IMG/VR virus record: IMGVR_UViG_2718218201_000002
Coordinates: 1 to 64,000 of that record
Direction: 5' to 3' (one strand)
Source: a virus
Lineage: Duplodnaviria; Heunggongvirae; Uroviricota; Caudoviricetes
DNA length: 64,000 nucleotides
Below the pieces are notes generated by a model. The model had not been told where the DNA came from. It did not search any database and saw only the letters and a program-made list of their open reading frames with translations. A program made the translations under genes and the position numbers. Positions 18,159 to 56,790 of the stretch are shown here, piece by piece (the first letter of the stretch is position 1; the number at the start of each line of letters is the position of its first letter).

Positions 18159-21100
18159 TTAAACAAATTCTCTTTCTAGTTTATAAGTGACTTCACCGTT
18201 TGTGCCTACATAATCAATTAGCTTTGTTGTAGTTGAAGTATTTGAATCTGCGTACTTTTTAGCAACAAATTGATTACCTCTTCTATATCCGCTGACAATC
18301 AACAAATTCCCTTTGCTAAACCAGCTATCTTCAGCTATCTTGCCATTTCTTTTTACTGCTTTGTTATAGTAAGAAAAATTTCCTTGATATTTAATTGGCA
18401 CCACTGAACCATCAGTAGATATAATAGTAACCATATTCTTTGATGCATTCTTTGAGATTACAACACCAGCGATTGAATCGATTTTATACTTAGGAAACTC
18501 TCTTCCTTTAAACGCAAACGTGTCAACTACTTGAGGTTCTTCTGGTAACTCACTATAACTACTCAAGTTATACATTTCTTTATTTACTCTTGATAGTTCA
18601 TGCTCATGGTAATAAAAAGACAATGTTTCCATTTCCCATTTAGAATAACTACCTAAAGCATATTTAATCCATTGTTTGTTTAACTCATAACTTTGTACCT
18701 TTTTCAGTTGTTCCTCAGATTTCAACCATTCTTTCAAGTCTTTAATTTTCTTTTCGAACGCTTTTTTAAATTGTTTTTCATCAATTTCATAATAACTGCT
18801 TGTAACATTTACAATACCCACGTCGCCAATCAATTTGTCATATAATTCCATGTCTTCAACCTTGAATATCTTAACATTAGACTTGCCTTGCTTCTCTTTT
18901 CTAATCACTTTGTTTTTAAATGATTCTTTAAACAATATAATTTCTTCTTCTGGTCTATCTTCAAGAATACCAGACTCAATTAACGTCTTAATATTTTGCA
19001 TAGTCAAAGTTTCAGGAACATTAGTGATATGTTTAATAACTTCCATCATTGCTACTTTACGTGACTCGCAAATGTTATCTAACATACCAGACTTAACCAT
19101 ATTGACTAATTGTGTATTTGTAACCAGTTTTTTGTCATACAATTTAGTAAATACATCTTCAATAGAGTTGTATGGTCTGTTTTCAATGATGTGATGAGTT
19201 GTCTTTGAGTTCAATGATTTAACAGGTTTTAATCCATAAATGATTACATTATGGTCTGCGTCAGGTGTAAATGCGAAATCAGATTTGTTTATATCAGGTA
19301 ATTTAACCTCTACACCGAACTCTTTAATCTTACCAATACCGTTAGCAATTTTTTCATGGTCTACAAGAAATTCACTATCTTCTGATGTAGCACCACTATC
19401 AACATTTAAACACGCTGTTTGCCAATAGATTGGGTTGTAAAATAGATTGAGATGCAAGTTTTGAATACCAATGATTGAGTATAAATTTGAGTGAATAGAA
19501 CTGAACGCATAGCTAAACATTGGTGTAAATTGAGTTTCCCATACATAATCAAGGAGGTTTTTACTTGTTCCTTGTTCTTCTCCCTTGCGATAAAACAGCA
19601 ATTTTATTTCATCTAAAGCTGCCCCTTTTGGCTTTGCAATAGCCTTTCTGAGCTTATTCTGCTCTTCTACGGTGAAGTTTGCGATTCTAGGGTCTCCAGA
19701 TAGCCCCATAGCTTGTTCTTGCACAGGAGAAACGCCTAGCGTGTGACCTATATGCTCTTCCATAACTTTAATTTCACTATCTGTTAATCCCCAATCATTC
19801 ATTTCATCATACCAAGTTTGGATATTCTCTTTATGTTTAATAAAAATGTCCATTGGTGGTTCTTTGCCTTCTTGTGATTGTAATCGCATTAAAGAGTTAG
19901 CGGCACTAAATTGTTCAAAGTTTTCAGGCTTAATTCTTTTTAATGTTTCAATACCAATATTAGTGTTGAACTGAAATGTATCGTTCACAACACCTTTTGA
20001 AGCCAATTCATAGTATCGTTTATCCTCATGATTAAGCGCACGTGGGTGTAAATACTCGTTAAAAGTATCTTTTAAACTTCCTTTTGATTCAATCACACCG
20101 TCTTTTTCCATTAGTTCTAATGTACTTCTAATTCTATCTAAATTATCAATCGATAATAAGTCAAACTTTACTAGACCCATATACTCACTGTCTTTAAGCG
20201 ACCATTGAGTAATACTTGCTTCACCTTTAGCAGCTTTCATCATAGCGCTGTGTTTATGAATCTCATCATTAAAGATGATTACTCCACCAGCGTGTTGTGA
20301 TTTAGCAACAACAATACTTTCTAATCCTAAAGCAGTTTTTAATAATTCTGGATACTTTTCCATCTCATTAATAAATTGCTGTTGTTTCTTTCTACCTTTT
20401 TCTTCATTACCATATAAACAATCACTAAGTGTATATTGTTGACCTCGCTCAGTCGGAATTAAGCTAGCAATATATTGCGCCTCTGTATCTTCAATTCCTA
20501 ACCCTCTTGCTGCTATTTTGATACAAGATTTAGTCCCTGCTGTTGTGAAAGTGGCAACATTTAACACTTTATCTTCACCATATTTATTTTTTAATGCTCT
20601 GATGACTTCTTGTCTGCGTTTACTTTCTATATCTACATCTACATCTGGAAAATCGCCTCGACTCTTATGTAAATGTCTAAAGTGTGGCATATTTTTATGT
20701 TCTAATGGATTAACTTGAGTAATTCCAAGTAAAAATAGTGATAAGAAGCCGCCAGATGAGCCACGCCCACTGCCTACTAATGAGCCAGAATAACCACTGC
20801 AAGTGTCTTCTTCCCAAATAGTATTAATAATATCCCTCACAGTAATATAATATGAGCTTACTGTTTGGTTAATCTTATCTCCTACACCTAATATTTCTTC
20901 CATTTCAATGTCCAGTCTTGCTAAAATTTGATGAAACTCTTCTTTAGTTATATCTTCTTTATGTAGCTCCCTCAAATAACCTTCCTCTAATAAATGAAGC
21001 ATATATCTTTCATCTTTCTTATCAGAATATGCTAATCTTTCAAGACTCTTATATTTGTCATAAGCGGGTTTAAACAAGTGTTTTAACTCAAATTCAGGAA

Positions 21101-22088
21101 TCTCGGCTCGTGGAATAATTGGTGAATGAGCTAAGTCATAATCCTCTGACTTATTGTATAATTCAGTTGTAGTTTCTAATGCTTGCTTTACTACATCGTC
21201 ACCTAAATAATAAGCCATTTGTTTATAAATATCGTCTACACTATGCATATATGTATACTTATAGAACTCTTCTACTTCACGCTCCTCATTTTTAGAGTTG
21301 AGAAACGCTGCATGAATTGTAGCATGAGACTTGTTGGCGTAATGTGTATCGCATGCGACTATGTATTTTAAATCGAATTCTTTAGCAAACTCTAATAAAT
21401 TCTCGTTAAGATAACGTTGCATAGGCGAGTCAGCAGGTTGTAACTCGATGTAAAAATCGTCTTTACCAAACGTATCAATACACCATTGAACTTCATTTCT
21501 GGCTTTGTTATGCGCTTCTTGAATCTTTTCTTTATCAAAAGTTTGTTCCATTAGCATTTTTTCTTGTAAATAAATGTTGACCGGCGACCCTGCACATGCT
21601 GTCGATGCCATCAATGTTCCTTTATACTCATCAGACTGCGCCACTTCTCTTAAATATGCTTTTTCAGTAGGTACACGTTCCATAATAGAACTACTAAAAA
21701 ATGAATTCTTCCACGCTTGCGTGCTTAATTTGCTTAATGCTTCAAAACCTTTTCTATTTTTAGCAATTAAACAAAAATGTGGGAACTTTGTTTTTCCACT
21801 TTCGTAATTATCTCTTACTTCTTCTAAACTATCGACGAGATAGATTTCATTACCCAACAACATTCTAAAATCTTCTCGCAATTCTCCACTAGCTTTCATT
21901 TCTTTCACTGTTTTAATCATATCTACAGCACTAGAAAGTGATTCATGCTCGGTGATACTCATACCTTTATAACCATATTGTTTAGCTGTCTCGATTAATT
22001 GTCTTGGTGAAGTAATCGCATCTGTTAGACGCAAGTTTGAGTAATATGAATGGTTGTGATGTAGTACATATTCGTTTCTTTCTGTCAT
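18159..22088 (-). CDS. DNA polymerase III alpha subunit (DnaE/PolC family) with N-terminal PHP domain
   Basis: 1309 aa. HHNHSYYS (PHP HxH), GSGRGSSGGFLSLFLLGITQVNPLE (pol III alpha core), and C-terminal OB-like and tail regions. Confidence 0.85.
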   Translation of the reverse strand: MTERNEYVLHHNHSYYSNLRLTDAITSPRQLIETAKQYGYKGMSITEHESLSSAVDMIKTVKEMKASGELREDFRMLLGNEIYLVDSLEEVRDNYESGKTKFPHFCLIAKNRKGFEALSKLSTQAWKNSFFSSSIMERVPTEKAYLREVAQSDEYKGTLMASTACAGSPVNIYLQEKMLMEQTFDKEKIQEAHNKARNEVQWCIDTFGKDDFYIELQPADSPMQRYLNENLLEFAKEFDLKYIVACDTHYANKSHATIHAAFLNSKNEEREVEEFYKYTYMHSVDDIYKQMAYYLGDDVVKQALETTTELYNKSEDYDLAHSPIIPRAEIPEFELKHLFKPAYDKYKSLERLAYSDKKDERYMLHLLEEGYLRELHKEDITKEEFHQILARLDIEMEEILGVGDKINQTVSSYYITVRDIINTIWEEDTCSGYSGSLVGSGRGSSGGFLSLFLLGITQVNPLEHKNMPHFRHLHKSRGDFPDVDVDIESKRRQEVIRALKNKYGEDKVLNVATFTTAGTKSCIKIAARGLGIEDTEAQYIASLIPTERGQQYTLSDCLYGNEEKGRKKQQQFINEMEKYPELLKTALGLESIVVAKSQHAGGVIIFNDEIHKHSAMMKAAKGEASITQWSLKDSEYMGLVKFDLLSIDNLDRIRSTLELMEKDGVIESKGSLKDTFNEYLHPRALNHEDKRYYELASKGVVNDTFQFNTNIGIETLKRIKPENFEQFSAANSLMRLQSQEGKEPPMDIFIKHKENIQTWYDEMNDWGLTDSEIKVMEEHIGHTLGVSPVQEQAMGLSGDPRIANFTVEEQNKLRKAIAKPKGAALDEIKLLFYRKGEEQGTSKNLLDYVWETQFTPMFSYAFSSIHSNLYSIIGIQNLHLNLFYNPIYWQTACLNVDSGATSEDSEFLVDHEKIANGIGKIKEFGVEVKLPDINKSDFAFTPDADHNVIIYGLKPVKSLNSKTTHHIIENRPYNSIEDVFTKLYDKKLVTNTQLVNMVKSGMLDNICESRKVAMMEVIKHITNVPETLTMQNIKTLIESGILEDRPEEEIILFKESFKNKVIRKEKQGKSNVKIFKVEDMELYDKLIGDVGIVNVTSSYYEIDEKQFKKAFEKKIKDLKEWLKSEEQLKKVQSYELNKQWIKYALGSYSKWEMETLSFYYHEHELSRVNKEMYNLSSYSELPEEPQVVDTFAFKGREFPKYKIDSIAGVVISKNASKNMVTIISTDGSVVPIKYQGNFSYYNKAVKRNGKIAEDSWFSKGNLLIVSGYRRGNQFVAKKYADSNTSTTTKLIDYVGTNGEVTYKLEREFV

Positions 22089-39826: not shown

Positions 39827-40227
39827 ACTAATTCACCGTCTTTCCAAATTAAGACTAACTCTCTGTCCTCATTCTCAACATAGAAATGTGTTGTTAATGT
39901 ACCTGCAAAGCGTGATAAGTATTCGTTTATACTCATATATTCAATTGTGTACAAAGCATCACTATTAATTCGTCCGAGGAATCGAACAATTAGTTCGAGT
40001 TTTGTGTCCTTAGAGATTTCTTCTTCTCTCCACACAATAAAGTTGTCAAGGTGTCCTACGTTAGTACAATTAGCATTTCCATTTTCATCAAAACTAACGG
40101 TAATAAACTCACTGCTAGAAAATATTCTATTTTTTATATTGTTTTGCTTTGCCCAATGTAACAATTCAGAAAAATTCATTCTCTTTTTAACTTTTAATTT
40201 CATTCCACCATCTCCCCATCTTCCCAA
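39823..40227 (-). CDS. paralog family C protein (MKxKVKKxMN...LIWxDGE)
   Basis: The real start is probably the internal MKLKVKKRMNF. Confidence 0.4.
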   Translation of the reverse strand: MGRWGDGGMKLKVKKRMNFSELLHWAKQNNIKNRIFSSSEFITVSFDENGNANCTNVGHLDNFIVWREEEISKDTKLELIVRFLGRINSDALYTIEYMSINEYLSRFAGTLTTHFYVENEDRELVLIWKDGELV

Positions 40228-40631
40228 ATAAGCGTCATTGTGTAGTCGTCGTTTAATATATAAAAGGCTTTTGGTAACGTATCTACGCCTTTTACAACTT
40301 CTCCCATAGCCTCTCCAATCGACGTTCTATGGTATGTGTGTATAATTTCCCCCAATCCACTCATAAACAACTCGACAAGGACTGGTATTTCTGTTTCTTC
40401 CGTAATTACTTCTTCTACTTCGACGGTGAAAGTGTCAAAATGATAGATGGGTTCCATGGTGTTGAACGAGTCGTCGCTATAAAACTTCACTTCCCTTCCA
40501 TAATATGATGTGAAAGTTTCACCTTTCACATTATTCTCTCGAGCCCATTGAATTAACTGATGTAGGTTCATTTCCTTCTTAACTTTAATTTTCATCATCG
40601 TTCCTCCCCAAAGCTTTCTCTCCAGTTGCAT
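40200..40631 (-). CDS. paralog family C protein
   Basis: MMKIKVKKEMNLHQLIQWAREN...LIWEDGEMVE. Confidence 0.4.
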   Translation of the reverse strand: MQLERKLWGGTMMKIKVKKEMNLHQLIQWARENNVKGETFTSYYGREVKFYSDDSFNTMEPIYHFDTFTVEVEEVITEETEIPVLVELFMSGLGEIIHTYHRTSIGEAMGEVVKGVDTLPKAFYILNDDYTMTLIWEDGEMVE

Positions 40632-40846
40632 ACAGAAGCAATGTGGTACATTACATCTTGTAAATTATCCAATATTTCACCATCTTCATCGATATAACTT
40701 TCGAATTCTCGATACTCTGTTGAATTGCTCCCCTTAAAAGTAGCGCCAAAACCATTTTTAATACATTGAAATTTAAAGTCATATCCTGCATAATTTACGT
40801 GACATTCCAATTCGTCATTCTCATTTTTATAGATTTTAATCATCAT
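40595..40846 (-). CDS. hypothetical small protein
   Basis: 83 aa. Confidence 0.3.
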   Translation of the reverse strand: MMIKIYKNENDELECHVNYAGYDFKFQCIKNGFGATFKGSNSTEYREFESYIDEDGEILDNLQDVMYHIASVCNWRESFGEER

Positions 40847-41304
40847 CGTTCCTCCTTGGAATTACTTTCCGTAATAGTTACTTCTAGCATATTATTGTAA
40901 TACTCATTCTTTTGATTAATATTATAGTTGTCATTGTGTTCATTGAAGTCTACATAAATGTATTCATTTGTTCCATCTTCATAAATAATATCTATGGCTG
41001 TAATATTTGAGTACGCTGTAATCATTTCATAAGCATTCGTATTATCAGGGTATGCAAAACTAACTTGAGGTATTTCAGTAGGCTTGTCAATAAGAATACC
41101 GAAATAAGTACAATGACGTGTTCGACTTATATCTGAAATTCCTTTATATGTGCCATAGTAATTTATTTCTTTTGTAATACCTTCTATGTCAAACCTGATT
41201 ACTTCCTTAGGTTCTAATCTTACTACATCACAATTTTCTAATACTAAGTCTATATATTTGATTAATTCATGGTGATTCATTCTCTTCTCCGTTTTAATTT
41301 TCAT
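40843..41304 (-). CDS. paralog family C protein (divergent)
   Basis: MKIKTEKRMNHHELIKY.... Confidence 0.4.
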   Translation of the reverse strand: MKIKTEKRMNHHELIKYIDLVLENCDVVRLEPKEVIRFDIEGITKEINYYGTYKGISDISRTRHCTYFGILIDKPTEIPQVSFAYPDNTNAYEMITAYSNITAIDIIYEDGTNEYIYVDFNEHNDNYNINQKNEYYNNMLEVTITESNSKEER

Positions 41305-43067: not shown

Positions 43068-43499
43068 TTAATTTATTTCTTTTACTTCTTCGAAACTCCA
43101 AATCGTTGTAGCAATTCCTCTGTCATCAGTGTAAATAATTGACGTCACATTAGGATTGTTATTCAGCACACCGTTAATAGATACATTGTTTTGTGTTATT
43201 GTAATTAATTTTCCTAATGATTCTGCTTTGTTTCCTACACCGCTATTGTTAATCACAATATCAACTCGATTAAGAATTGTATCTTTATCAACTGATTTAC
43301 TTGTTGTTACATCAAACTCTTCCTCAGACGTAAACTTTTGACTTACAGTAACATAGCCGTCCGAATCAAAATAAACCTTTGTTTTCTTGTCTCCTAAGAA
43401 TGTACGTTCTCTAAAATCTTCTTCCCAAGCAATTTGCAACAACTCTGATAAGTTTACCTTCTTATTAATATTAATATCCATTGTCTTCCTCCTTCTCAA
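43068..43499 (-). CDS. paralog family C-like protein
   Basis: ...MDININKKVNLSELLQIAWEE...TTIWSFEEV. Confidence 0.35.
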   Translation of the reverse strand: MRRRKTMDININKKVNLSELLQIAWEEDFRERTFLGDKKTKVYFDSDGYVTVSQKFTSEEEFDVTTSKSVDKDTILNRVDIVINNSGVGNKAESLGKLITITQNNVSINGVLNNNPNVTSIIYTDDRGIATTIWSFEEVKEIN

Positions 43500-44232: not shown

Positions 44233-45987
44233 TTAAAACGGTAAATCATCTAAACATAGTGCATTGTCTACTTTCTCTTGCGCCGACTTAATTGTGAAAT
44301 CTTGAATCAATAACTGTGGTGTGTTTCTACCCTTGTAGCTGTTTACACTAGCTGTACACACCATGTCAATATACACAGTATCTTCCGCAAGGGCGATTTC
44401 ACTCTTTTCATCTTCTGAGATTCTAAACTTAATACAGTCCACACCTTGAACTTGTATTTTTAACGTGCTGCCAGTTTTGCCTATGAAATTGAAATCACTT
44501 TTCTTCATATAAATATTTTTCAAGTAAATAAGTGGCTCATCAATACCATTACACCACATATCTTTTTGTTCAGCTAAATCAAGAATAGCGTTCATATCCA
44601 CAAAGTTTGACCAGATGAAATCAACTTCGTATTCTACATCATCAAAATCAACATTAATCAATTCAGATTCAATTAATGACTGTATCTCTAGCGCATCGTC
44701 TAGTTTAAATTCAACGCCAAACGCATTTGCATGCCCTCTACAAACAAACTTCCCTGTGTCAGTTAAAAACTTGTTTAAGTCTTTAATTGGTGAGTTAGAT
44801 AAATTACGTGCTGAACCTCTAAACAATTCTCCTTTTTGTTTAACTAATAACACTGGTTTATTGTACTCTCTTACTAATTTCATTGCTACTAAACCAGTTA
44901 ATCCGTTATCTTCAATAATGCCACTTGCATTAACAATTAAGATTTTGAATTTATCAGAACCTTTTTCATTGATACGCTCCTTAATCTTTTCCATGACCTC
45001 ATCTTCTTGTTTCTTTTGACGACGTTTTACTGACATGGCTCTGAGATATGCTTCTTCAATAATACTTTGATTTATCTTCTTTCTTGAGTTGTATATCTCG
45101 TAATCAAATTCACACATTCCATGAATAACTTGCTCTACTTCTTCTGGTTTACCCAAGCGGAAAACTGAATTAAAGATTGGTGCAACATTAAAACCAATAT
45201 CAGTAGCATTTAAATCAGTATCTTCCTCCATATTGCCATTTTTTTCAACAACCTTTTTCAATAACTTACTATGAATATTTTGTTTCTTTAATCCACTTCT
45301 CATCATATAATAAGCACCTAAATCAACAGAAAAGTCGGCTCTATCAGCAACTAAACCAATAGCGGCTAAATCAAGTAATTCTTTTGGTTCCTTTAATTCA
45401 TATTTATCACTATATGCTTTACAAAAAAGATAAGTCATAGCTGAACCAGTTAGCCCTTTATTTTCAAATTCTGGTGATAATTGATTGTTTACGATTATAG
45501 CTGGCGTTTCTTCTTCTGACGCTAAATGATGGTCAACCACAATACAATTAATCCCATTATCGTGTAACTGTTTATGTTCATTGAAATCACTTGAACCAGC
45601 GTCTGTAACTATTAATAAATCACCTGATTCAACCTCGGCTAACACTCTGTCAATAAGTATCCCATGTATTTTTCCCTTAGGCATAATTAATTTGATTAAC
45701 TCTTTATCGTATTTAACGTAATTCACTAAATATTTATAAATGATTCCAGCACTTGTTAAACCGTCCATATCAACATCGATAGTCAATGCAATTTTACTTT
45801 TATTTTTAACGTGTTTGTTCAATAGTTCGATAGCTGTTTCAATATTTTTCAGCTTGCTATAATCCGGCATTAAATGACTTTGGGGACTAAGATAACTCTT
45901 TATTAAGTTACTCTTAATCCCCCTGTTCATTAACACCTGTTCGACGCTATTGTCAACACTAACATCACTTTTTAATTTTACTTTCAT
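44233..45987 (-). CDS. RecJ-like DHH/DHHA1 single-strand DNA exonuclease
   Basis: DVDMDGLTSAG (motif I), VVDHH (motif III), CRGHANAFG (DHHA1 GGGH-like). The C-terminus ends DDLPF. Confidence 0.65.
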   Translation of the reverse strand: MKVKLKSDVSVDNSVEQVLMNRGIKSNLIKSYLSPQSHLMPDYSKLKNIETAIELLNKHVKNKSKIALTIDVDMDGLTSAGIIYKYLVNYVKYDKELIKLIMPKGKIHGILIDRVLAEVESGDLLIVTDAGSSDFNEHKQLHDNGINCIVVDHHLASEEETPAIIVNNQLSPEFENKGLTGSAMTYLFCKAYSDKYELKEPKELLDLAAIGLVADRADFSVDLGAYYMMRSGLKKQNIHSKLLKKVVEKNGNMEEDTDLNATDIGFNVAPIFNSVFRLGKPEEVEQVIHGMCEFDYEIYNSRKKINQSIIEEAYLRAMSVKRRQKKQEDEVMEKIKERINEKGSDKFKILIVNASGIIEDNGLTGLVAMKLVREYNKPVLLVKQKGELFRGSARNLSNSPIKDLNKFLTDTGKFVCRGHANAFGVEFKLDDALEIQSLIESELINVDFDDVEYEVDFIWSNFVDMNAILDLAEQKDMWCNGIDEPLIYLKNIYMKKSDFNFIGKTGSTLKIQVQGVDCIKFRISEDEKSEIALAEDTVYIDMVCTASVNSYKGRNTPQLLIQDFTIKSAQEKVDNALCLDDLPF

Positions 45988-47099
45988 GTTTGTGTCTCCT
46001 CTAAGTCTTTCAGTGTTATTAAATGTTTATCTTCTTTCATCATTAATTCTAATTCTTCTTTGTTTAAATCTAATGGGCTCTCTTTAAGCCACAATCTATT
46101 TTTAGTATCGGTTAAATGATACGTTGTGCAATAAGGAGCAAACAGTTTTGCTATTTTTCTAATTTTTTTCATATATTCATCATAGTCAGGAGAATCAACA
46201 ATCATGTATTCTTTATCCATCGCTATAATTACTTCTTCAACTTGTAAATCTAATAGCAAATTAGCTTGATACTTGCTCATATTAGAACCACAAATTGCTA
46301 CTACGAAATTATTGTCGCCATAAAAAGTGTCAGAAAATAGGCATGATTTTTCTCCCTCAACAATCATGACTTTCTTCTTCTTTTTAATAGCTTCTTTGTT
46401 TTGAAATAAACCGTATAAAGAGTATCCTAATGGGTGATTAAATCCTCTATTACCAATGAATGTGGGGATATACTTAGCTTTTTTCACTAAGTCTTTGCGC
46501 CAGTTACGACTACGTATACCAATCAGATTTCCCTCACCATCGAGATGAGGGATAATAGTTTGATTCATTTCAGGATAGAATCTAATCCCGTACTTTTCCA
46601 TAGTTTCAAGGCTTATACCCTCTTCTACCCAAGCACTCGGATACATTTCATCAAAATACTTCATTATACTTTTGTTAATCACATCTAAATCAGGAATGAT
46701 TTGAGATTTAGGTTTGAGTCTATTTAACCAAGCCCAATCGTCAATAAGTTTGACTTCAAGTTGGACACCCTTGACTTTTCTACTAAAGTCAATCTTTCTT
46801 CCTAATATCTCACCTAAAATTTTTATTGCTTGATGAAAGTCAATTTTACTTCCTCGAACTTTATTGACTTTAATAATTAAATCATATATATCAAATGCAC
46901 CACAGTGTGTGTAGCAATAAAAAGTATGTGTATCTGGATAATAGTATAGCTTATGTGAACCACCAGACTTGTTGTGGCAAATTGTTTCTGAAACTATCTC
47001 ACCTTTAGAATTAATATAGTGATTAGCCCCATAGTATGTAAGCACTTTCTGAATTTCTTCTATGTTTAATGTTTCTTTAAATTTATCTTTGTTGAACAT
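45984..47099 (-). CDS. DnaG-like DNA primase (zinc-binding plus TOPRIM)
   Basis: CHNKSGGSH...FYCYTHCG zinc finger. TOPRIM MIVEGEKS...AMDKE. Confidence 0.65.
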   Translation of the reverse strand: MFNKDKFKETLNIEEIQKVLTYYGANHYINSKGEIVSETICHNKSGGSHKLYYYPDTHTFYCYTHCGAFDIYDLIIKVNKVRGSKIDFHQAIKILGEILGRKIDFSRKVKGVQLEVKLIDDWAWLNRLKPKSQIIPDLDVINKSIMKYFDEMYPSAWVEEGISLETMEKYGIRFYPEMNQTIIPHLDGEGNLIGIRSRNWRKDLVKKAKYIPTFIGNRGFNHPLGYSLYGLFQNKEAIKKKKKVMIVEGEKSCLFSDTFYGDNNFVVAICGSNMSKYQANLLLDLQVEEVIIAMDKEYMIVDSPDYDEYMKKIRKIAKLFAPYCTTYHLTDTKNRLWLKESPLDLNKEELELMMKEDKHLITLKDLEETQT

Positions 47100-47114
47100 T
47101 TTTATGTCACCACT

Positions 47115-48674
47115 TTAAAATGGTAATGTTTCTTCTTCTTTTTCTTCCTCTTGAACTAATAATTCAAGCGGTGTAACTTCCATAAGCTCATCTCTATCGT
47201 TAGTCATAAACAAATCTTCCATTCGCATAGTATCAAAATCAACGTAAAGATATAATTTACCTTTATATTTTGAATGACGATTTTTATATATGTGCCAAAT
47301 CATATTAGGTTTCTTGTTTACACCCTTTAAATTAGCCATTACTGCTTCAATTATCTTGTCGTCTTCACTTGTCGGTCTGGTCATAACAATACCTTTTGTA
47401 AATTTATCCGCCATATTCTTTGCACCACGAAGTACATTTTGGTCTAACTTTTTACTATGTATTGCTTCCCCATTTACCTGAGTAGATGTCGAAAGATGAA
47501 TGTTATGCTCTTTAGCAATTTCGGCTAAACCAGCAGCAAAAATACCTAAAATCATATCCTCACGTGTAGTCATACCACGAGTTTTACTTGCCATTTCCAT
47601 CATTACTTGAAAATTTAAATGAATATAATCAAAAAATACGTACTCAACATTATATTGTGTTACATACTTTTTTATGATAGCGTTAATTGTCGTTGGCTCA
47701 AATTGCGGAATGTATTCAATATAAAACGAATTACAATCATTTAATTCTTGAATTGATTCTTCAATGACTCTTACTTCTTCTGTTGATAAATTGTAATCTT
47801 TGATTCGTTCTTCTGGAACACCACTGATATAAGCCCAAATGGTTGGTTCCAACTCCTCTTGTTCCATCTCAGTAGTTATGTATAATACTTTCTCAGATAG
47901 TCCTTTACTTTCCCACTTTCCTGTTTTCCAATTATACCACTTTGTGATTGCTAAATCGGTTGCCTCTCCTAAAGATGTACGTGATTTAAAGGTGTTAGTG
48001 GAAGCTGAACGTAACATGGAAGCACCTAATAACTGACCTCTAAATATTTTATTTTGTAATTTTCCACAAGTTGAGACACCATATTGTGGCTCTTCTTTAA
48101 AACTGTTGAATAGTTGTAAACCATTTTCACCAGCAACTCCACCTTCAGTTTCATAACCAATTTTAAATTTACTAGCAAACTCGTTCACAATTTTTTCATA
48201 ATGCTCTATAATATCATCAACACTTAAATGTTCAAATCTGTTTTGTAACTCTGTATTTTCTTCATCATCATCTGACGATTCATAAACATCTTCAAGTCCA
48301 AATCCTAAGCTCACTGCTTCTCTTAAAATAGTAAATTTACGAATTCGTGTTGCATGACGGTGATATGAATCTGGACTCCCTAAAGTCGAAATAATATTAT
48401 ACAAGAATTCAACACCGTCATTTTGGGTGAATATTTTATATGGCTCGTCATAATGACTTAAAAATTCATCGACGGCAGCTGGAGTAATTTCTTCTCTCAT
48501 GCCGTCCATAAACAGATTAGCTATCGCTGAGTAAATAATGTAATAAAACTTACTTTCTCCTCTAGCCATAAAATCATTCTTATCTAGCTTAATTTTACTT
48601 TCCTCAATCAATGTGGGCTTTTTCATTAAACAAGCTAAAGCACTACACATGTTTGAGTTAGGGAACAAGTCCAT
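47115..48674 (-). CDS. DnaB-family replicative helicase (Walker A degenerate)
   Basis: DnaB N-terminal domain-like start. RecA-like core with FFDYIHLNF...TTREDMILGIFAAGLAEIAKEHNIHLSTSTQVN. The C-terminus ends ETLPF. Confidence 0.5.
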   Translation of the reverse strand: MDLFPNSNMCSALACLMKKPTLIEESKIKLDKNDFMARGESKFYYIIYSAIANLFMDGMREEITPAAVDEFLSHYDEPYKIFTQNDGVEFLYNIISTLGSPDSYHRHATRIRKFTILREAVSLGFGLEDVYESSDDDEENTELQNRFEHLSVDDIIEHYEKIVNEFASKFKIGYETEGGVAGENGLQLFNSFKEEPQYGVSTCGKLQNKIFRGQLLGASMLRSASTNTFKSRTSLGEATDLAITKWYNWKTGKWESKGLSEKVLYITTEMEQEELEPTIWAYISGVPEERIKDYNLSTEEVRVIEESIQELNDCNSFYIEYIPQFEPTTINAIIKKYVTQYNVEYVFFDYIHLNFQVMMEMASKTRGMTTREDMILGIFAAGLAEIAKEHNIHLSTSTQVNGEAIHSKKLDQNVLRGAKNMADKFTKGIVMTRPTSEDDKIIEAVMANLKGVNKKPNMIWHIYKNRHSKYKGKLYLYVDFDTMRMEDLFMTNDRDELMEVTPLELLVQEEEKEEETLPF

Positions 48675-48687
48675 CTATCCACTTCCT

Positions 48688-49197
48688 CTACAATTCATTT
48701 AAATCAAATTTTCGCTTTTTATTCTTTTTTACTTTTTTAACAACAACTTCTTTTACTTCTTCTTTTTCTTTCACTTCTGTGTTTTGTATTCGAACTAGGT
48801 TGCGGTAAAAGTTAGCCGCTTCGTCATAAATGTATGGAAGAATCCCAATACCTTTTGAATTTCTAGTAGAATTATTTTTTATAACATAGAAATATTGCAA
48901 AGCCATATGAATTGCTTTATATCTATAATTGTATGGTGCGTTATGATAAGTTTGAATTTGTTTTAAAACAAGTCCAGAGGGCTTATCAGTATTAAATAAA
49001 GTGCATATATACTCGATTAATTCTTTATATTCTTCTTTTTCTTGTAATTTGCGTTTTTCTTCTTCGTTCTGCTTGTTAATAAATTGTTCTCTACACGATT
49101 CATGCCAGTATCTTCTACCAACTTTAATCATGTTTTCTTTATTGTCTTGCTGCTCACAAAACGGGCATTTAACAGTGTTAGCCATATAGTTCACCAA
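48688..49197 (-). CDS. hypothetical Zn-ribbon protein (possible helicase loader)
   Basis: CPFCEQQ...HESC, then a K/E-rich tail. Confidence 0.35.
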   Translation of the reverse strand: MVNYMANTVKCPFCEQQDNKENMIKVGRRYWHESCREQFINKQNEEEKRKLQEKEEYKELIEYICTLFNTDKPSGLVLKQIQTYHNAPYNYRYKAIHMALQYFYVIKNNSTRNSKGIGILPYIYDEAANFYRNLVRIQNTEVKEKEEVKEVVVKKVKKNKKRKFDLNEL

Positions 49198-49253
49198 CTT
49201 ACTTTAGAGTAAGTCTCAGCGGTGTAGCGATTCCACTGAGACCTTTGTGAGTT

Positions 49254-50228
49254 TTATTCAGACTTTAGCTTATCTGTTAAGTCATCAACAATAACAGTCA
49301 TTGCTTCTGTTTGTTTCTCCCTTAATTCATTTACCTTAGTACCTTCACCAAAAGTATCGTCCATTACCTCAGTAAATTCATCTAGGCGTCCAGCTTCCAT
49401 ATATGCTTTACCTAAACCAATTAATTTCTCCTGTAATTCACCAAAGTTAAGTTTCTCTGAGCTAGTATTCTCAACAAATTCTTCATACGTAACTGCCTTA
49501 CCACCCGCTTGTTCTGCACGTTCTACGCCTATACGCACAGCTTCTTCAAGATTTTCAGCAGTAAATGGTTCAATCACATTAGGCATTAAGTCAAAGCGTG
49601 AACGTGCAAAGTATTCATCTGTTTCACGAACATAACCGGTAGACAAGATTACATTTCCCTCGTCATCTACGCCATTCGTTTTCAAATATACGATAACATC
49701 GGCTAAATCACGTACAGTTCCCATTGAACGAATATCTCCCGCTGGCTGAACTTTACCGTTTTCGTCCATCTTCTCGTGTCCGATAAATACAACTGTGTAT
49801 CCTACAGAAGTTAATTTATCAATTTCTCCCCAGAACTCTTCCTTATATTGTTGCCACAATCCGTAACCGCCGTTCCCGCTAGCCACATCGGCTGCACCAT
49901 GTTGATTAGCTACATATCTTTGACAATAAATAGCGGCAATATCGACTGTATCAAAAATAATTGTATCGTATGTTGCACGTGCTTTTTCAACTTCTTTACC
50001 AGTCAATTGCTTATTAATCTTTTTAAAATCTGACCATTTAGTTACATAATGAAAAGGAATACCAGAAATCGCATTCAAACCTTTTTCAAAACCTAAGTAG
50101 AATGGCTTACTCATTGCAGCCGCTTGTTTAGTTTTACCTGATGAGTTTTGACCGTATAATAAAAACGATTTACCTTCTAAACCTTTCGGAATTACTGAAA
50201 TAGTTGGGTTAAAAATATCTAATGACAT
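49254..50228 (-). CDS. Sak4-like RecA-fold ATPase (AAA_24 family)
   Basis: Walker A YGQNSSGKT. Walker B IIFDTVD. 324 aa. Confidence 0.6.
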   Translation of the reverse strand: MSLDIFNPTISVIPKGLEGKSFLLYGQNSSGKTKQAAAMSKPFYLGFEKGLNAISGIPFHYVTKWSDFKKINKQLTGKEVEKARATYDTIIFDTVDIAAIYCQRYVANQHGAADVASGNGGYGLWQQYKEEFWGEIDKLTSVGYTVVFIGHEKMDENGKVQPAGDIRSMGTVRDLADVIVYLKTNGVDDEGNVILSTGYVRETDEYFARSRFDLMPNVIEPFTAENLEEAVRIGVERAEQAGGKAVTYEEFVENTSSEKLNFGELQEKLIGLGKAYMEAGRLDEFTEVMDDTFGEGTKVNELREKQTEAMTVIVDDLTDKLKSE

Positions 50229-50252
50229 GTATAAATCTCTCCTAATTAAAAA

Positions 50253-50447
50253 TTATTTTTTTGTTTTATTATTAATTCGTTTACTCCAATGCTTTGGTCG
50301 ATATGCATATAGTATGTCAATTAAATTATTTTCTTCATAATAATTTAAAAACTCTTTAATTCTCTTATTCTTTCTATATAAATAAATTGTTGCATCTTGG
50401 TACATCAAATTATATATGGTATACTCTATGATTACCACCGCATTCAA
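50253..50447 (-). CDS. hypothetical small protein
   Basis: 64 aa. Confidence 0.25.
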   Translation of the reverse strand: MNAVVIIEYTIYNLMYQDATIYLYRKNKRIKEFLNYYEENNLIDILYAYRPKHWSKRINNKTKK

Positions 50448-50582
50448 AAGTATGTATGTATTTCTTATCTTTCAACTTATAAATATTGGATACACTTTCT
50501 TTATATCCTTAATTTTAGCAAGGCAAGAATTATCCCGCCTCGCTATTTCTCTATATTCTATCAATTAATTTATTTCTTTTGA

Positions 50583-51533
50583 TTAGAAAGGTAAATCTTC
50601 ATCAGTTAAAGTTGAAGTATTTGTTGTTGTCGATTTCTTAACAATATTAACTCCTTTTTTAACCTCTTGCTTTTTCTTCTCTTGAGAAGCTGATTGACGC
50701 TCTACTTTATAGTCTTCATACTTCTTCATAGCATCTTTCATTTCTTCAGTAGTGATGTATCCAACTGATTCTTCATCTTCTGCCGGAGAGGCACCTTCAA
50801 CTAGAATACGATTCTCAATTTCACGTTTAGTATCCACAATTGGTTTACCAATACCAGCTGGGTTAGGACGTTCTACTTGTTTAAGAATATATTTGTTAAT
50901 CCACTGCCCGTTAATAGTTAAGGTCATACCTTTTTCAAGATTATCTTCTAACCATTCAGCGACACCATATTCGTCAGTCGCTTCAACTTCAAAAGGTTGA
51001 GCCATACCACGTTGAATAGCTGCTACTTTGAATCTTACGCTGTCTGTTTCATCTCCATCTTTATTGGTAACACGAGTAGCACTTGATAAAGCAAATGTTT
51101 GGAAAACAAATTCAACACCGTAATCTTCTTTTTTAGCGTTACGTCGAGACACAAAATTAGCTTGAATTGTTGGCATCTCTACTAATTTACCATCACGTCC
51201 TTGATACACATTGTTTTCAATATGTCCATTAATACCAATAACAGTTGGACTAACGTCTTGTAAGTTTTTCTCTGCAATGTCTTTGAGGCTTACATACTCA
51301 TCTTGCATAGTCTCAATAGCTTTATAAGCCTTATTCTCTTCTTTTTTGCCATCGTTCTCAAAGTATTCCATAGCTGACATTCTAGCTCTATGTACTTCTC
51401 CTTCTCCTGTTTGTACAGAGATATTTGCCATTTTCATTGGAACGCCTTTTTTAGTTGTAATTTCTCGTACCTCTAATTCTTTAAGCTCTCCTAAAACCGT
51501 CACTTTGTTTTCATATCGTTTGTTTTCAGCCAT
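50583..51533 (-). CDS. putative single-stranded DNA-binding protein with an SSB-type acidic C-terminal tail (DEDLPF)
   Basis: 316 aa. The C-terminal ...TDEDLPF resembles the SSB-Ct (D-D-D-I/L-P-F). It is positioned next to Sak4. Confidence 0.4.
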   Translation of the reverse strand: MAENKRYENKVTVLGELKELEVREITTKKGVPMKMANISVQTGEGEVHRARMSAMEYFENDGKKEENKAYKAIETMQDEYVSLKDIAEKNLQDVSPTVIGINGHIENNVYQGRDGKLVEMPTIQANFVSRRNAKKEDYGVEFVFQTFALSSATRVTNKDGDETDSVRFKVAAIQRGMAQPFEVEATDEYGVAEWLEDNLEKGMTLTINGQWINKYILKQVERPNPAGIGKPIVDTKREIENRILVEGASPAEDEESVGYITTEEMKDAMKKYEDYKVERQSASQEKKKQEVKKGVNIVKKSTTTNTSTLTDEDLPF

Positions 51534-53129: not shown

Positions 53130-54143
53130 TTAGGGCTTATTCACTATTACTACTCCATATAATTCTTGCAAAGCATCTGTATACTGTTCACTAAACCTAG
53201 CAACCGTATAAGATAAGGAATTTTTAAAAATATGCCTATTATATCTTCTCATTACTTTTTCTATTTTTATGAAATCTAATTTTCCTTTTTCTGATAGCAA
53301 GTACATATAATGTAATATACCAGAATCAATGACGTTAGTGACGCTTGAGATATAATTATTAGTTAAATCTTGTAACACCCTTATTCGTCTGTATACTACT
53401 TGCTTATCAATTTGTTCTGTTGTGGTATCAGTAAACTCGACATTTCTAAAAATATGGTTTCCACTTATCACTTCTTTTGCAGGTGTTCTAGAACTAGGGT
53501 CACCATTCTTGGTATAATAGATTGTGGCTTTATACGAGCTCTCCATGTCGTCTAACAATAGTTCAGGCACTTCGACATAGCGTTCAATTGTTTCACTTTT
53601 TTTGTCATTTAAAAGTTTTAATTTATAATATTGCTCATTATTAGCAACATGCGTTGGATTATTTCTGGCTTCTTTAACATCTTCAATGGTTAAATTGATT
53701 AACTCACTATAAGCTGTTCCAGAAATACCATGAAAAATTGCTGAAATTAATGCTCTATCACTAGCATTATAGAAACTACTAACATGCAATAAGAATTTTT
53801 CGTACGTGAAAAATTTTTGTTTATGTTTGTACACAAACTTATCAATCTTGTCGTACGTAAACATTCTAAATAAGTTAATGTTAGACAGCCTATCCCCTCT
53901 TTCAATTGCATAGTCAGTATATTTTTTAGCAAATGTTAAATAAGTTAATAAAGTGTTCTTACTGGACGAATAGATGTTGTAAAGCAAAATTTCTATTTCC
54001 GTAGTAGTAAAATTATACAAATCAGTATCGAACTGTTGCTCTACTTTACTACTATTGTTGAACAACGCAGTATATACTCTTACTTCATTTTCACGCTCTA
54101 AAGATTGCAAGAACTGCTTTTTATACAAGCTATTATAAAACAT
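53130..54143 (-). CDS. hypothetical protein
   Basis: 337 aa. Its ATG overlaps the stop of the upstream ParB-like gene. Confidence 0.45.
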   Translation of the reverse strand: MFYNSLYKKQFLQSLERENEVRVYTALFNNSSKVEQQFDTDLYNFTTTEIEILLYNIYSSSKNTLLTYLTFAKKYTDYAIERGDRLSNINLFRMFTYDKIDKFVYKHKQKFFTYEKFLLHVSSFYNASDRALISAIFHGISGTAYSELINLTIEDVKEARNNPTHVANNEQYYKLKLLNDKKSETIERYVEVPELLLDDMESSYKATIYYTKNGDPSSRTPAKEVISGNHIFRNVEFTDTTTEQIDKQVVYRRIRVLQDLTNNYISSVTNVIDSGILHYMYLLSEKGKLDFIKIEKVMRRYNRHIFKNSLSYTVARFSEQYTDALQELYGVVIVNKP

Positions 54144-55456
54144 TACTTCACTCTCGCTTTCTCAAACAAGATTTTAATATTTTTGATTGCTTCGCTTTGT
54201 ACTTTCTTAATACTTTGATTTGCCATTTCAATTCTGAAGTTGACCTCGTTGTTTTTTAGATAATCAACTGCTTTATGAGCTTCATCTATAAATTCTTTAA
54301 TCGTTAAACCACTTTCGACATAATATTTAAGAAAGGCATAGATGTAAATACGAGTATTAAAAGTATTATTAATTTCCCGTAAGTCTATATAAGCTAAAAT
54401 TACTTCTGAAACTTCTTGAACAGTGCTTACTTGGTCTCTTCTAGTCTCAACTTTAAATAATTCATCAATGTACTTACTTAATTCAGAAAATGCTATTGAA
54501 CCCCCACCAGCTGTACTATTTGTGGTTTTAATAACATCTTCAAAAATAGCATCTTTATCTTTTATTGCCTTAACAACTTTGGCGCCTCCAGATTCTTGTT
54601 GTAGCTCTGCTACTCTATTTTTTGACCACGGTGTCGCTTTACTATGTTGTGCTTGCCATTTGATTGCTTCAGCTGTAGTAAAGTTACTAAAAACTACATT
54701 GAATTCAAAATTGATAGTTGGGTTTTCACGATAAGCGTTTTGCGCTGCTAATACACGGTGAAAACCATCGATAACATCTAATCTTGTTCCCTCAGTAATC
54801 GTTAATGTATAGCTCTCAGGGTCATAAATTAATTCATCACCATTCACGCTCGTCATAGGAGCGGCGTTAAAGAAAAGTGTACTTTCTTTTAAACCATCTT
54901 CTAAAAGCAACTTTTCCATTTCTCGAATATTCTTTTGATTCAACGTTGGCTTTCTAATAATTTTTCCAATTCGTTTTTCCAATTTTGATTCCCGTTGAAT
55001 ATCAAAGTTATAATTGATTACTTTAGAATCAACAAACTCTGCAATTTGCTTAACACTTATTTTTGTACTGTATACATTGTTTACTTTAACAACTGGTTGA
55101 AAATCATATGGGAAAGTAATTTTATCTTGTTCTAAGAATGCATGAAAATCAAATTGTTTTGCCTCATTAATTTCCCCAGCTGTTAGATACTCTTGTATAC
55201 CGTCTTCGTACCCCAATACTTTAAAACTTTCCAAAATGAATAACGAGATTAGGCGAATATCAGTGGTGTCAAAAAAGTTATCATCTAGTTCACGATTCAA
55301 GAAAGAATGTGTGATGCCGCTAGGAACTCTATATTTTCTTTCCATTTCATTAGCAATTTTATTAATCAATTTACTGGTATCTTGATTTTTTAGAAGTGTG
55401 ATAACTTCTCTAAAAGCCTTGAATTTATTATTCATGCTTTCCCTCCTTTTTATCAT
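54143..55456 (-). CDS. ParB/Srx-superfamily (DGxHR motif, DndB-like) nuclease-domain protein
   Basis: 437 aa with DVIDGFHRVLAAQ in the central region. Confidence 0.4.
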   Translation of the reverse strand: MIKRRESMNNKFKAFREVITLLKNQDTSKLINKIANEMERKYRVPSGITHSFLNRELDDNFFDTTDIRLISLFILESFKVLGYEDGIQEYLTAGEINEAKQFDFHAFLEQDKITFPYDFQPVVKVNNVYSTKISVKQIAEFVDSKVINYNFDIQRESKLEKRIGKIIRKPTLNQKNIREMEKLLLEDGLKESTLFFNAAPMTSVNGDELIYDPESYTLTITEGTRLDVIDGFHRVLAAQNAYRENPTINFEFNVVFSNFTTAEAIKWQAQHSKATPWSKNRVAELQQESGGAKVVKAIKDKDAIFEDVIKTTNSTAGGGSIAFSELSKYIDELFKVETRRDQVSTVQEVSEVILAYIDLREINNTFNTRIYIYAFLKYYVESGLTIKEFIDEAHKAVDYLKNNEVNFRIEMANQSIKKVQSEAIKNIKILFEKARVK

Positions 55457-55692
55457 TTTTACTTTTTGATTTATCGATTTTTATATTTTGGTTTCTCTGA
55501 TTTTTGTTTAATTTGTTTTTTGATTTCCAGAAACTGTTTATAACCATCATTTGAATGAGATTATAGCTTCACAACTCATGTTTTTAATAGTTAAGAGTTA
55601 ATTCAAATTAATAGTCATACTATGCATAGCTTAGTCACTATTTACATTTAACCACAAAATATAATTATTGTCTATGCAATTATCAGTATAAT

Positions 55693-56790
55693 TTATTTTA
55701 TTTTCGTTAATAAAGCTAACTCTTTTTTTAACATAAATTGCATTGCTTCTGGTAAATTGCTTAATACCTCAATTAGCTCAGTTTTACTATATTCAGAAAA
55801 TCTAATATCAGCAGTGTCAATTTTCTGTTTGTTCGATATAGCACCTTGAAATGCTTGTTTATTATCCTCAAGATAAATTTGAGTAGTGTTAATATTCGCA
55901 TGATTTCCTACTTGTTTAGCTATTTGAATATCTTTGGTAGCTTCATAGGCGTAGTTTACTGCTCCTTTTTTGAAACTATGAAAAGTGATATTTCTATTTT
56001 CATACCCTAAAGCCTTTTTAGCCCGCTTCATCATTTTATACCTAAGTTCACTAGAAAAATTGAAAATCGGCTCATTTGAATTCTTATCAAGTTGCAATTC
56101 ATCAAACATTGCTGATGCGAATTCTAATGATAAACTTTTAATAAATTGTTTCTTCCCTTTGTCTATACCTTTTAATATAACCTCTCCTTTCTTCCATATA
56201 AATGATTGAGGAGTGATATTGTTTAATGCTTCAGCACGAATACCGGTATCAAACGCTAAGGCAGTATAATAGTATTTATCGATTGCTTTTTCTTTCTCAT
56301 TCTCTTTAAACCAATTGATAAACTCAAGTGCTTCGTCATAGCTCAACACTTCATATGAATTTTTAGATGTTTTTAACTTTGCTATATTGTTGATACCCAC
56401 AAGGTCAATTTCATACCCGCTGTTATATAGGAATTTTGCGAATTCGATTATAGCTGACATCTTACGATTAATAGTGCTTGGTTTTAATTCACTTTTAATT
56501 AAGACACTTCTATATTGAATCAACTGTTTTCTATTCATAGTGTGTACGACCAAATCGACTTTAACATTCTCAGTTCCATATATTTTATTAAGGAATTGTT
56601 TTAAGTCATTTAAATATGCTGATTTAGTGCTTTGTGAATTAGCTCCTGCTTCATCAGCGAATTCATTAACTAAACTCAAAATGCTATTTGTGACACTATT
56701 ATTACTCATAATATGATTTTCTAGTCTTATAACGTTTGCTGTCATTTTTCCTTCTCTCCATTCTTTTAATCTTGCATTCGTACGTTTCAT
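55693..56790 (-). CDS. tyrosine recombinase / phage integrase
   Basis: Box I TGIRAEAL and box II FHSFKKGAVNYA...GNHANINTTQIYL (catalytic Tyr). The N-terminus has a SAM-like core-binding domain. The second conserved Arg appears as Lys. Confidence 0.6.
   Translation of the reverse strand: MKRTNARLKEWREGKMTANVIRLENHIMSNNSVTNSILSLVNEFADEAGANSQSTKSAYLNDLKQFLNKIYGTENVKVDLVVHTMNRKQLIQYRSVLIKSELKPSTINRKMSAIIEFAKFLYNSGYEIDLVGINNIAKLKTSKNSYEVLSYDEALEFINWFKENEKEKAIDKYYYTALAFDTGIRAEALNNITPQSFIWKKGEVILKGIDKGKKQFIKSLSLEFASAMFDELQLDKNSNEPIFNFSSELRYKMMKRAKKALGYENRNITFHSFKKGAVNYAYEATKDIQIAKQVGNHANINTTQIYLEDNKQAFQGAISNKQKIDTADIRFSEYSKTELIEVLSNLPEAMQFMLKKELALLTKIK

Follow-up and report, generated by a model that had tools for sequence, protein, structure and literature searches.

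Acidic Leu-Pro-Phe tails on the SSB-like protein, helicase and RecJ-like nuclease of an SPbeta-like staphylococcal prophage as candidate docking tails for a common partner

[quoted passage not shown] In Bacillus subtilis the interactome of the SSB C-terminus (SSB-Cter) is large, its members include DnaE and RecJ, and DnaE reaches replication forks in an SSB-Cter-dependent manner (PMC3000357). The C-terminal domain of Deinococcus RecJ (drRecJ, residues ~532-705) binds the SSB-Ct ...DDLPF: a hydrophobic pocket holds the Phe, and Lys629 pairs with an Asp (PMC4846377). In T7, the acidic tails of gp4 dock on basic patches of gp5 (PMC12593628). For the Sak4 protein of phage HK620, the final 6 residues of the cognate SSB are required (PMC5928155), and Sak4 of phi11 forms with its Ssb a functional pair that is needed for phage replication (PMC5499656). 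Here we analysed a window of 64,000 nucleotides (positions 1 to 64,000 of the IMG/VR virus record IMGVR_UViG_2718218201_000002), in which a RecJ-like nuclease, a DnaB-like helicase and an SSB-like protein of the YorF family all end in an acidic stretch followed by Leu-Pro-Phe (LPF). The explanation that we favour, with moderate confidence, is that these are common docking tails for one co-evolving, probably phage-encoded partner.

The RecJ-like nuclease ends in ...NALCLDDLPF, the helicase in ...QEEEKEEETLPF, i.e. acidic EEEKEEET followed by LPF, and the SSB-like protein in ...TLTDEDLPF. In each case L-P-F stands directly before the stop codon and acidic residues (DD, EEEKEEET and DED, respectively) lie just upstream. 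An earlier reading of this DNA, made from the sequence only, had reported these endings and likened them to the bacterial SSB-Ct; the endings and their coordinates on the minus strand were confirmed, and the tails indeed match the tip of Staphylococcus aureus SsbA, ...DISDDDLPF (PMC5531588). The SsbA tail was taken from the literature; the constructs of SsbA in the PDB are truncated. When all six frames of the window were searched for open reading frames (ORFs) of at least 40 amino acids, 3 out of 287 were found to end in PF. All three have LPF, and they encode the RecJ-like protein, the helicase and the YorF-family protein. With the amino-acid frequencies of the window itself, LPF at the end of three or more of 105 genes has a probability of 1.3e-7, and the chance that three random genes all land among the seven replication genes is 1.9e-4. 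The LPF codons are unlike (TTA CCG TTT, TTA CCA TTT and TTA CCT TTC), as is the DNA on either side of them; therefore the likeness lies at the protein level and does not stem from a recent copy of DNA, and gene conversion was rejected as the origin of the common tails. The genes and tails in question are the following:

50583..51533, minus strand: YorF-family SSB-like protein, 316 amino acids (PF27337 YorF, phrog_2367, AlphaFold2 model and Foldseek)
50586..50606, minus strand: tail of the YorF-like protein, TDEDLPF, SSB-Ct-like (translation)
49254..50228, minus strand: YorG, Sak4-like AAA_24 ATPase / single-stranded DNA (ssDNA) annealase, no aromatic tail (AAA_24 3e-40, phrog_124 Sak4-like)
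48688..49197, minus strand: YorH-like protein, 169 amino acids (phrog_4680)
47115..48674, minus strand: YorI, DnaB-like replicative helicase, 519 amino acids (DnaB_C, PF03796, 1.4e-10; phrog_19 2.7e-54)
47118..47153, minus strand: acidic, aromatic-ended tail of the helicase, QEEEKEEETLPF (translation)
45984..47099, minus strand: YorJ-like DNA primase, no aromatic tail (phrog_47 DNA primase 1.5e-45)
44233..45987, minus strand: YorK, RecJ-like 5'-3' ssDNA exonuclease, 584 amino acids (Pfam DHH and RecJ_OB, phrog_2484 4e-162)
44236..44259, minus strand: tail of the RecJ-like nuclease, LCLDDLPF, SSB-Ct-like (translation)
18159..22088, minus strand: YorL-like DNA polymerase III (Pol III) alpha, 1309 amino acids, no aromatic tail (PHP, DNA_pol3_alpha, DNA_pol3_finger, HHH_6)

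The window covers part of a prophage of Staphylococcus pseudintermedius that is SPbeta-like. Many genomes of this species carry proteins that are 99-100% identical to those of the window, and the closest deposited phages are SPbeta-like phages of Staphylococcus and Mammaliicoccus. The G+C content is ~31% and almost every gene lies on the minus strand. The region with the three tails has the gene order of yorF to yorK in Bacillus phage SPbeta. The phage Pol III alpha, already named in the sequence-only reading, is present 22 kb downstream of this region (18159-22088). Among the best 25 of the 54 Pfam families in the window there was neither a clamp or clamp loader nor a canonical SSB family, so that host replication factors are probably needed. 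In the complete SPbeta-like Staphylococcus phage NC_029119 (127.7 kb) the same picture was obtained: 3 of its 441 ORFs end in LPF, and these are yorK, the helicase gene and the YorF homologue, the last being ~51% identical to YorF of the window.

To follow the tails more widely, ~250 related loci were collected from viral, metagenomic and genomic collections and the proteins of the module were annotated by hidden Markov models. A scan of viral contigs with the YorF alignment gave 2 loci only, and alignments of the RecJ-like protein and the helicase were used instead; host assignment is unreliable for metagenome-assembled genomes, and we relied mainly on isolates. The sequence-only reading had named absence of the LPF endings from orthologues as evidence against it, but the endings are present there. 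LPF was found in 26 of 27 distinct RecJ-like tails down to 39% identity, with the consensus [LIMF]-[SC]-[LIV]-D-x-L-P-F, which parallels the host tip I-S-D-D-D-L-P-F, and with D at position -5 in 19 of the 27. The YorF homologues carry D-LPF in 19 of 19 distinct tails down to 46% identity, with D at position -4 scored in 18 of the 19; all full-length YorF proteins have the ending, and the linker in front of it varies. The helicase tail is looser, acidic and aromatic-ended. Among 35 distinct helicase tails (at least 47% identity) the last residue is F in 29 and Y in 2, LPF occurs in 11 and PLF in 8, and the mean net charge is -4 over the last 12 residues; some helicase homologues are tailless. 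That the tip is kept and the linkers drift suggests that the tails are under purifying selection.

The tails are also specific to these proteins. Across 30 clade representatives (clusters at 60% helicase identity), terminal F was present in 19/26 YorF, 14/30 YorI and 26/27 nuclease sequences, compared with 0/27 for YorG, 0/29 for YorH, 1/29 for YorJ and 0/20 for YorL (together 1/105), and 12/317 for other ORFs (Fisher p 1e-10 to 1e-28). Similarly, among 3,147 ORFs of 86 related loci, endings of the type [LIVMF]PF belong only to YorF (39), YorI (4), YorK (5) and one distant YorF-like protein. When a PD-(D/E)XK nuclease stands in the place of RecJ, it carries the aromatic hook as well, and thus the tail follows the role of the protein and not its fold.

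The motif ahead of the terminal aromatic residue varies by lineage, with LPF, Phi-V-F, FDF, FNF, YYF, acidic-W and DLF-x-x forms. D-x-LPF is found on all three proteins in the window and in NC_029119, and identical LPF on all three is limited to part of the Staphylococcaceae lineage. Mammaliicoccus phage phi36 has YorF ending in ...NEDDLPF, the RecJ-like protein in ...MDFSDLPF and the helicase in ...VVEEYDF. The triad of locus L095 reads ...DFADF, ...FGGLDF and ...FGGFDF, and that of locus L093 ...DLAW, ...LDWF and ...DFWF. Two prophages of Lysinibacillus isolates, L217 and L226 (3976-11731), carry complete YorF-YorL modules with the tails DDLFGED, GDLFGG and DDLFNW; here D-L-F is near-terminal and followed by 2-3 residues, and the hook is not at the extreme C-terminus. 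In a clade of gut phages (L044-L079; L071 4253-5389, L044 4311-5390) a distant YorF relative of ~358 amino acids ends in ...DEDEAWD and the RecJ-like protein in ...NDEDDDW, and the helicase has no aromatic tail. In loci of the SPbeta-proper type YorF alone is host-like (...EISDDDLPF); the RecJ-like protein ends in basic ...KKKELVF and the helicase has no hook.

Tails of YorF and of the nuclease are more similar within a genome than between genomes (p = 1e-4 for both n = 25 and n = 41; 0.003 for 7 deep clades). This similarity persists when the terminal residue is left out, and the net charges of the two tails correlate (Spearman r = 0.73, p = 3e-5). For helicase and nuclease the similarity is marginal (p = 0.008-0.06). 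A simple three-way co-variation was thereby weakened: the YorF-nuclease link holds, that of YorI and nuclease is marginal and that of YorF and YorI is weak.

The last point would be expected if the three tails were separate look-alikes with three receptors, YorF carrying an ordinary SSB-Ct, the helicase a T7-gp4-like polymerase tail and the nuclease a tail for, e.g., the annealase, as in exonuclease-annealase pairs. Several lineages have three distinct motifs (DDLPF / KKFDF / KKEFVF), and the helicase tail stands apart from those of YorF and the nuclease by its much stronger acidity (net -4) and its greater variability, which would also agree with separate functions. On the other hand, the co-variation of YorF and nuclease is strong in both sequence and charge, and the triads of the window, NC_029119, Lysinibacillus, L095 and L093 each converge on one motif. 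We therefore regard three unrelated receptors as unlikely and prefer docking to a common partner.

The range of motifs also bears on the possibility that the tails are read by the host. To our knowledge the tips of bacterial SSBs are nearly invariant, D-D-D-[IL]-P-F; this was checked for S. aureus and, by citation, for Gram-positives. The LPF tails could engage host SSB clients (DnaE, PriA, RecG, RecQ, RecO, RarA) and either recruit or block them, with no phage receptor involved. The tip match extends over 5-8 residues (ISDDDLPF compared with LCLDDLPF and TDEDLPF, and with NISDDDLPF of relatives). Convergence of the three proteins on the host-type motif is confined to the Staphylococcaceae lineage, and host-like D-x-LPF is found on YorF in many Bacillus-type lineages as well. 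The SSB-Cter interactome of Firmicutes is large (PMC3000357), and clamp, clamp loader and canonical SSB are missing from the strong Pfam matches of the window. However, sister lineages in ordinary Firmicutes, the Lysinibacillus isolates included, have non-host motifs (DLF-x-x, FGG-x-DF, FNF/YYF and W-type). The tail charge flips from basic to acidic jointly in SSB and nuclease, which a conserved host pocket would not demand, and the SaSsbA-Ct peptide showed no binding to SaPriA in vitro (PMC5531588). Competitive mimicry of host SSB, as raised in the sequence-only reading, is thus backed by the match to the host tip; as the whole story we consider it possible but doubtful, given the motifs of the sister lineages. 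It is compatible with a common phage partner and does not exclude it.

Two further explanations meet the same variation. The C-terminal LPF could be a degron, i.e. a ClpXP tag that limits the lifetime of the three proteins. In some Streptococcus mutans strains LPF on SsbA, SsbB or green fluorescent protein suffices for degradation by ClpXP, with LPY tolerated, but this recognition is strain-dependent and absent in Escherichia coli and other streptococci (PMC5143411). All three positions are needed in S. mutans; in the phage families, by contrast, a tail may also end in PLF, YDF, FNF, YYF or DLF-x-x or be of the W-type, and lineage-specific co-variation is not expected of a tag for a host protease. 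A degron is in our opinion highly improbable.

The other explanation is binding to a sliding clamp. Some dialects (SLDWF, KKFDF and DLFG) resemble the beta-clamp motif QL[SD]LF or the C-terminal clamp peptide of the T4/RB69 polymerase. The target of the tails might accordingly be the beta clamp of the host or a clamp of the phage; no clamp is among the strong Pfam matches of the window, and the host clamp is probably used. However, D-D-L-P-F is an exact match to the SSB-Ct and a poor one to the clamp motif, and proteins of the three kinds concerned (SSB, hexameric helicase and ssDNA exonuclease) do not typically count among the clients of clamps. We give clamp binding very little credence.

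Next to the tails themselves, the proteins that bear them were compared with known folds. The YorF-like protein had no match in the local copy of Pfam-A, the SSB family PF00436 included; it matches phrog_2367, which is of unknown function, and the family PF27337 YorF came from precomputed annotations. Its AlphaFold2 model, with a mean predicted local distance difference test (pLDDT) score of 81.7, contains two tandem OB folds (residues ~9-130 and 139-250) and a helix (262-289). Residues 287-316 are disordered in the model, with pLDDT <50 for 287-312, and the tail is modelled free. The top Foldseek matches were SSBs with two OB folds from Thermus aquaticus, T. thermophilus and D. radiodurans (E 3e-10 to 3e-9, probability 1.0). 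By its predicted fold the YorF-family protein thus appears to be a tandem-OB SSB, with a predicted ability to bind ssDNA. The label SSB-like, given to it from the sequence only, is upheld by the two OB folds of the model and the Thermus/Deinococcus matches and not by sequence searches, which gave no Pfam match and a PHROG of unknown function. In 8 of 8 deposited phage genomes the YorF homologue is called a hypothetical protein. A distant YorF-like protein of 446 amino acids is encoded in Sporosarcina globispora DSM 4 (L036 4141-5481 / L196 4186-5526) and ends in ...SSVNISDDDLPF, a near-exact Gram-positive SSB tip; the neighbouring RecJ-like protein ends in ...VTETLLF.

YorK has a DHH/DHHA1 core and an OB domain (Pfam DHH 2.4e-15; RecJ_OB over residues 477-563). 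Residues D71, D73, D75, D129, D152-H153-H154, D215 and G418-H419 are invariant across 65 homologues. The AlphaFold2 model has a pLDDT of 92.1, with ~61-67 for the last 14 residues. Its top Foldseek match was S. aureus RecJ (SaRecJ, 8y30; E = 5e-32, template modelling score 0.75), and drRecJ in complex with SSB-Ct (5f56) was matched with E = 1e-30. The family profile covers residues 27-563 of the 757-residue SaRecJ, and the phage protein stops at residue 584, ~20 residues past the OB domain. The phage RecJ is therefore without the C-terminal region that holds the SSB-Ct pocket in Deinococcus RecJ. It would have swapped the receptor domain for SSB-Ct for the ligand and, lacking the pocket region and having the tail, would be recruited like an SSB and not by an SSB.

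For the helicase, the alignment revealed an unusual Walker A motif. In the window it reads STNTFKSR (47979-48002, residues 225-232), with Phe in place of the P-loop Gly of G-K-[ST], and the canonical G-K-[ST] was not found in this protein. T-N-T-F-K-S is kept in the helicases of the Staphylococcaceae clade (P0110-P0126), whereas distant relatives have N-[LV]-G-K-[TS]. The strongly acidic tail of the helicase raises the question of autoinhibitory DNA mimicry, in which acidic tails would fold back onto the DNA-binding surface of their own protein and their likeness would be one of composition. The tail of E. coli SSB weakly binds its own DNA-binding site, according to work cited in PMC5928155. 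However, the conserved part of the phage tails is the terminal aromatic residue with its two neighbours and not the charge, Bacillus-type tails are basic (KKKLDLPF, KSKKFDF and KKKEFVF), and the YorF tail is free in the model (pLDDT <50). Autoinhibition is thus very unlikely, and docking to a partner remains our preferred explanation.

As to the identity of this partner, the best candidates are probably the Sak4-like ATPase YorG, whose gene is adjacent, and YorL, the Pol III alpha, by analogy with the Sak4-SSB pairs and with SSB-Cter-dependent DnaE. The sequence-only reading had proposed a common docking site, on the phage Pol III alpha or on host SSB-interacting proteins, and had invoked T7. 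The analogy is valid in principle, as the docking of gp4 tails on gp5 basic patches demonstrates (PMC12593628), and a common site is supported by the within-genome co-variation of the tails, but Pol III alpha is one candidate among others and the precedent for YorG is equally good. A hub for recombination, composed of exonuclease, annealase and SSB, would fit slightly better than a polymerase hub because the link between SSB and nuclease is the strongest one. When the tails were scanned for charge anti-correlation with patches of the other proteins, residues ~267-273 of YorG gave a borderline family-wise p of 0.048; the other best patches were in the bodies of YorF (0.051) and YorI (0.068) and in YorL (0.29, n = 13), all values being those before correction for six tests. 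YorH homologues in related loci carry PF26927 Phage_SPbeta_YorH. The YorH family has a conserved motif of its own at the very C-terminus (48691-48717 in the window), a basic run followed by [IVF]-[DN]-[IL]-[SN]-x-[LI], reading KRKFDLNEL here and IDISTL, IDISSL or INMLEI elsewhere; it is similar to 'IDIS' within IDISDDDLPF, the SSB tail of Gram-positives.

Taken together, the SSB, the replicative helicase and the 5'-3' ssDNA exonuclease are parts of one SPbeta-type replication/recombination module around Pol III alpha. Their tails reproduce the host SSB tip, acidic residues followed by Leu-Pro-Phe-COOH, and would be short linear motifs for docking in the manner of an SSB-Ct. If they are read as in the solved complexes of SSB-Ct, a basic-rimmed hydrophobic pocket of the partner would take up the terminal Phe with its carboxylate, and the three tails would bind the same receptor in turn or in competition. 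One co-evolving receptor is most likely because the tails of SSB and nuclease vary jointly between lineages, as does, less strictly, that of the helicase. It is probably phage-encoded because the motifs co-change and, in several lineages of ordinary Firmicutes, differ from the host SSB tips. Such a receptor could gather SSB-coated ssDNA, the resecting nuclease and the helicase at a single hub that serves replication and recombination-dependent replication. Because the common motif of the staphylococcal lineage equals the host SsbA tip, the tails may plausibly have the extra role there of reaching the clients of host SSB or of competing with host SSB.

Several points weigh against this explanation. 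The helicase tail is variable and is missing in several lineages, including the loci of the SPbeta-proper type. The co-variation of YorF and YorI is weak (p ~0.04) and not significant without the terminal residue, and the permutation tests reduce phylogenetic non-independence without fully removing it. The Bacillus-type lineages with DDLPF / KKFDF / KKEFVF fit separate pockets equally well. The charge scan, which covered YorG, YorH, YorJ, YorL and the bodies of YorI and YorF, gave no receptor that survived correction for the six tests. The RecJ tail, with its pLDDT of 61-67, may be partly ordered or docked in cis. The region that seems to have been lost from the phage RecJ was measured on SaRecJ, whereas the SSB-Ct pocket is known from drRecJ.

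A more specific proposal can be put forward tentatively. The tails may form a lineage-specific code that is carried by the SSB, by the nuclease of any fold and often by the helicase, and that co-evolves with and is read by a single phage-encoded hub, most plausibly the Sak4-like ATPase. The RecJ-like protein would have exchanged a domain for a tail, and the staphylococcal code would have converged on the host tip, which would let the three proteins join the SSB interactome of the host as well.

Other genes of the window and of its relatives were noted in passing. The gene for the large subunit of ribonucleotide reductase is split (4642-7768), with three ORFs matching Ribonuc_red_lgC; an ORF for an HNH/NUMOD4 homing endonuclease (4642-5502) adjoins an N-terminal ribonucleotide reductase piece of 381 amino acids (6623-7768), which suggests that the gene was split by intron or intein insertions. 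A TnpB/Cas12f-like ORF of 450 amino acids (27119-28471; Cas12f1-like_TNB and a weak OrfB_IS605 match) lies in the phage early region, and in locus L091 a similar insertion is located between the helicase and primase genes. The 770-amino-acid product of 35823-38135 joins kinase (AAA_33), metallophosphatase and T4-type RNA ligase 1 domains in one chain; it resembles an RNA repair enzyme of the Pnkp/Rnl type and is also kept in the related locus L090. A small paralogous family (39823-41304 and 43068-43499) encodes proteins of ~135-155 amino acids with the N-terminus MK(I/L)KVKK.MN...L..WA..NN. There is a clear relationship (local alignment score 215) between the members at 39823-40227 and 40200-40631, and those at 43068-43499 and 40843-41304 are more weakly related.

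Upstream of the replication module (53130-56790) are a tyrosine integrase, a DndB-like protein and an MrpR-like recombinase/repressor, and the same trio precedes YorF in L090 and L091. In these two staphylococcal-clade relatives, LAGLIDADG-type ORFs are found between the YorF and YorG genes (L090 7258-8355, L091 7709-8380). In NC_029119, which comes from S. epidermidis, aacA-aphD, dfrA and thyA lie between copies of IS257 (L089, about 22688-30669 in coordinates of the locus), and the Pol III alpha gene is annotated as two pieces, dnaE_1 and dnaE_2.

Our search of the literature, from which most subscription journals were outside, found no work naming at least two yor genes together. Four aspects appear to be new: that in a phage module of the Pol III alpha type the tail is borne by a RecJ-like nuclease and a DnaB-like helicase, that YorF is assigned as an SSB with tandem OB folds, that RecJ has lost its C-terminal domain and gained a tail, and that the tails co-vary by lineage, also across a swap of nuclease fold. 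The YorF assignment gives a function to a widespread family of 'hypothetical' phage proteins, and the tails offer a concrete proposal for the wiring of the Pol III alpha-based replisome of SPbeta-like phages, which carry resistance genes in staphylococci (aacA-aphD and dfrA in NC_029119). The docking principle of bacterial SSB and T7 is hereby extended to a nuclease and is kept when the nuclease fold is swapped. Co-variation of tails could serve to predict cognate partners, and the tails, which are simple experimental handles, may bear on the portability of Sak4/SSB recombineering tools, known to hinge on the compatibility of the SSB tail.

Compared with the bacterial SSB-Ct, the phage tails have in common the position at the extreme C-terminus, the acidic residues, the L-P-F ending and, in YorF, the flexible linker, and the SSB clients DnaE and RecJ both have homologues in this module. 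The difference is that the tip is borne here by the helicase and the RecJ-like nuclease, whose cellular relatives are clients, and, as SSB-like bearer, by a 316-amino-acid tandem-OB YorF protein with no match in local Pfam-A. This reversal is seen most clearly next to the Deinococcus RecJ-SSB-Ct complex (5F56), which has the same nuclease fold as YorK and shows how a ...DDLPF tip is read: there the pocket is in the C-terminal domain (~532-705) of drRecJ, whereas the phage enzyme carries the ligand instead.

In T7, with its gp4 helicase-primase and gp2.5 SSB, as in this locus, the helicase and the SSB of one phage have similar acidic, aromatic-ended tails, which in T7 serve to couple the replisome by docking on the gp5 polymerase (PMC12593628). 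However, this locus has a C-family Pol III alpha as its polymerase, in contrast to the A-family enzyme with thioredoxin of T7, helicase and primase are separate proteins, a nuclease is the third bearer, and the strongest co-variation is that of SSB and nuclease and not that of SSB and helicase. As in the Sak4-SSB pairs of HK620 and phi11, the SSB gene adjoins a gene for a Sak4-like AAA_24 protein, and by this analogy YorG may be the receptor; the SSBs of those phages are canonical single-OB proteins, and a nuclease or helicase with the same tail is not described there. The closest relative is the yorF-yorL region of SPbeta, with the same order and the same families (PF27337, AAA_24, PF26927, DnaB_C, primase, DHH/RecJ_OB and Pol III alpha). 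In contrast to the window, SPbeta-proper loci have DDDLPF on YorF alone, with KKKELVF at the end of YorK and a YorI that lacks an aromatic tail.

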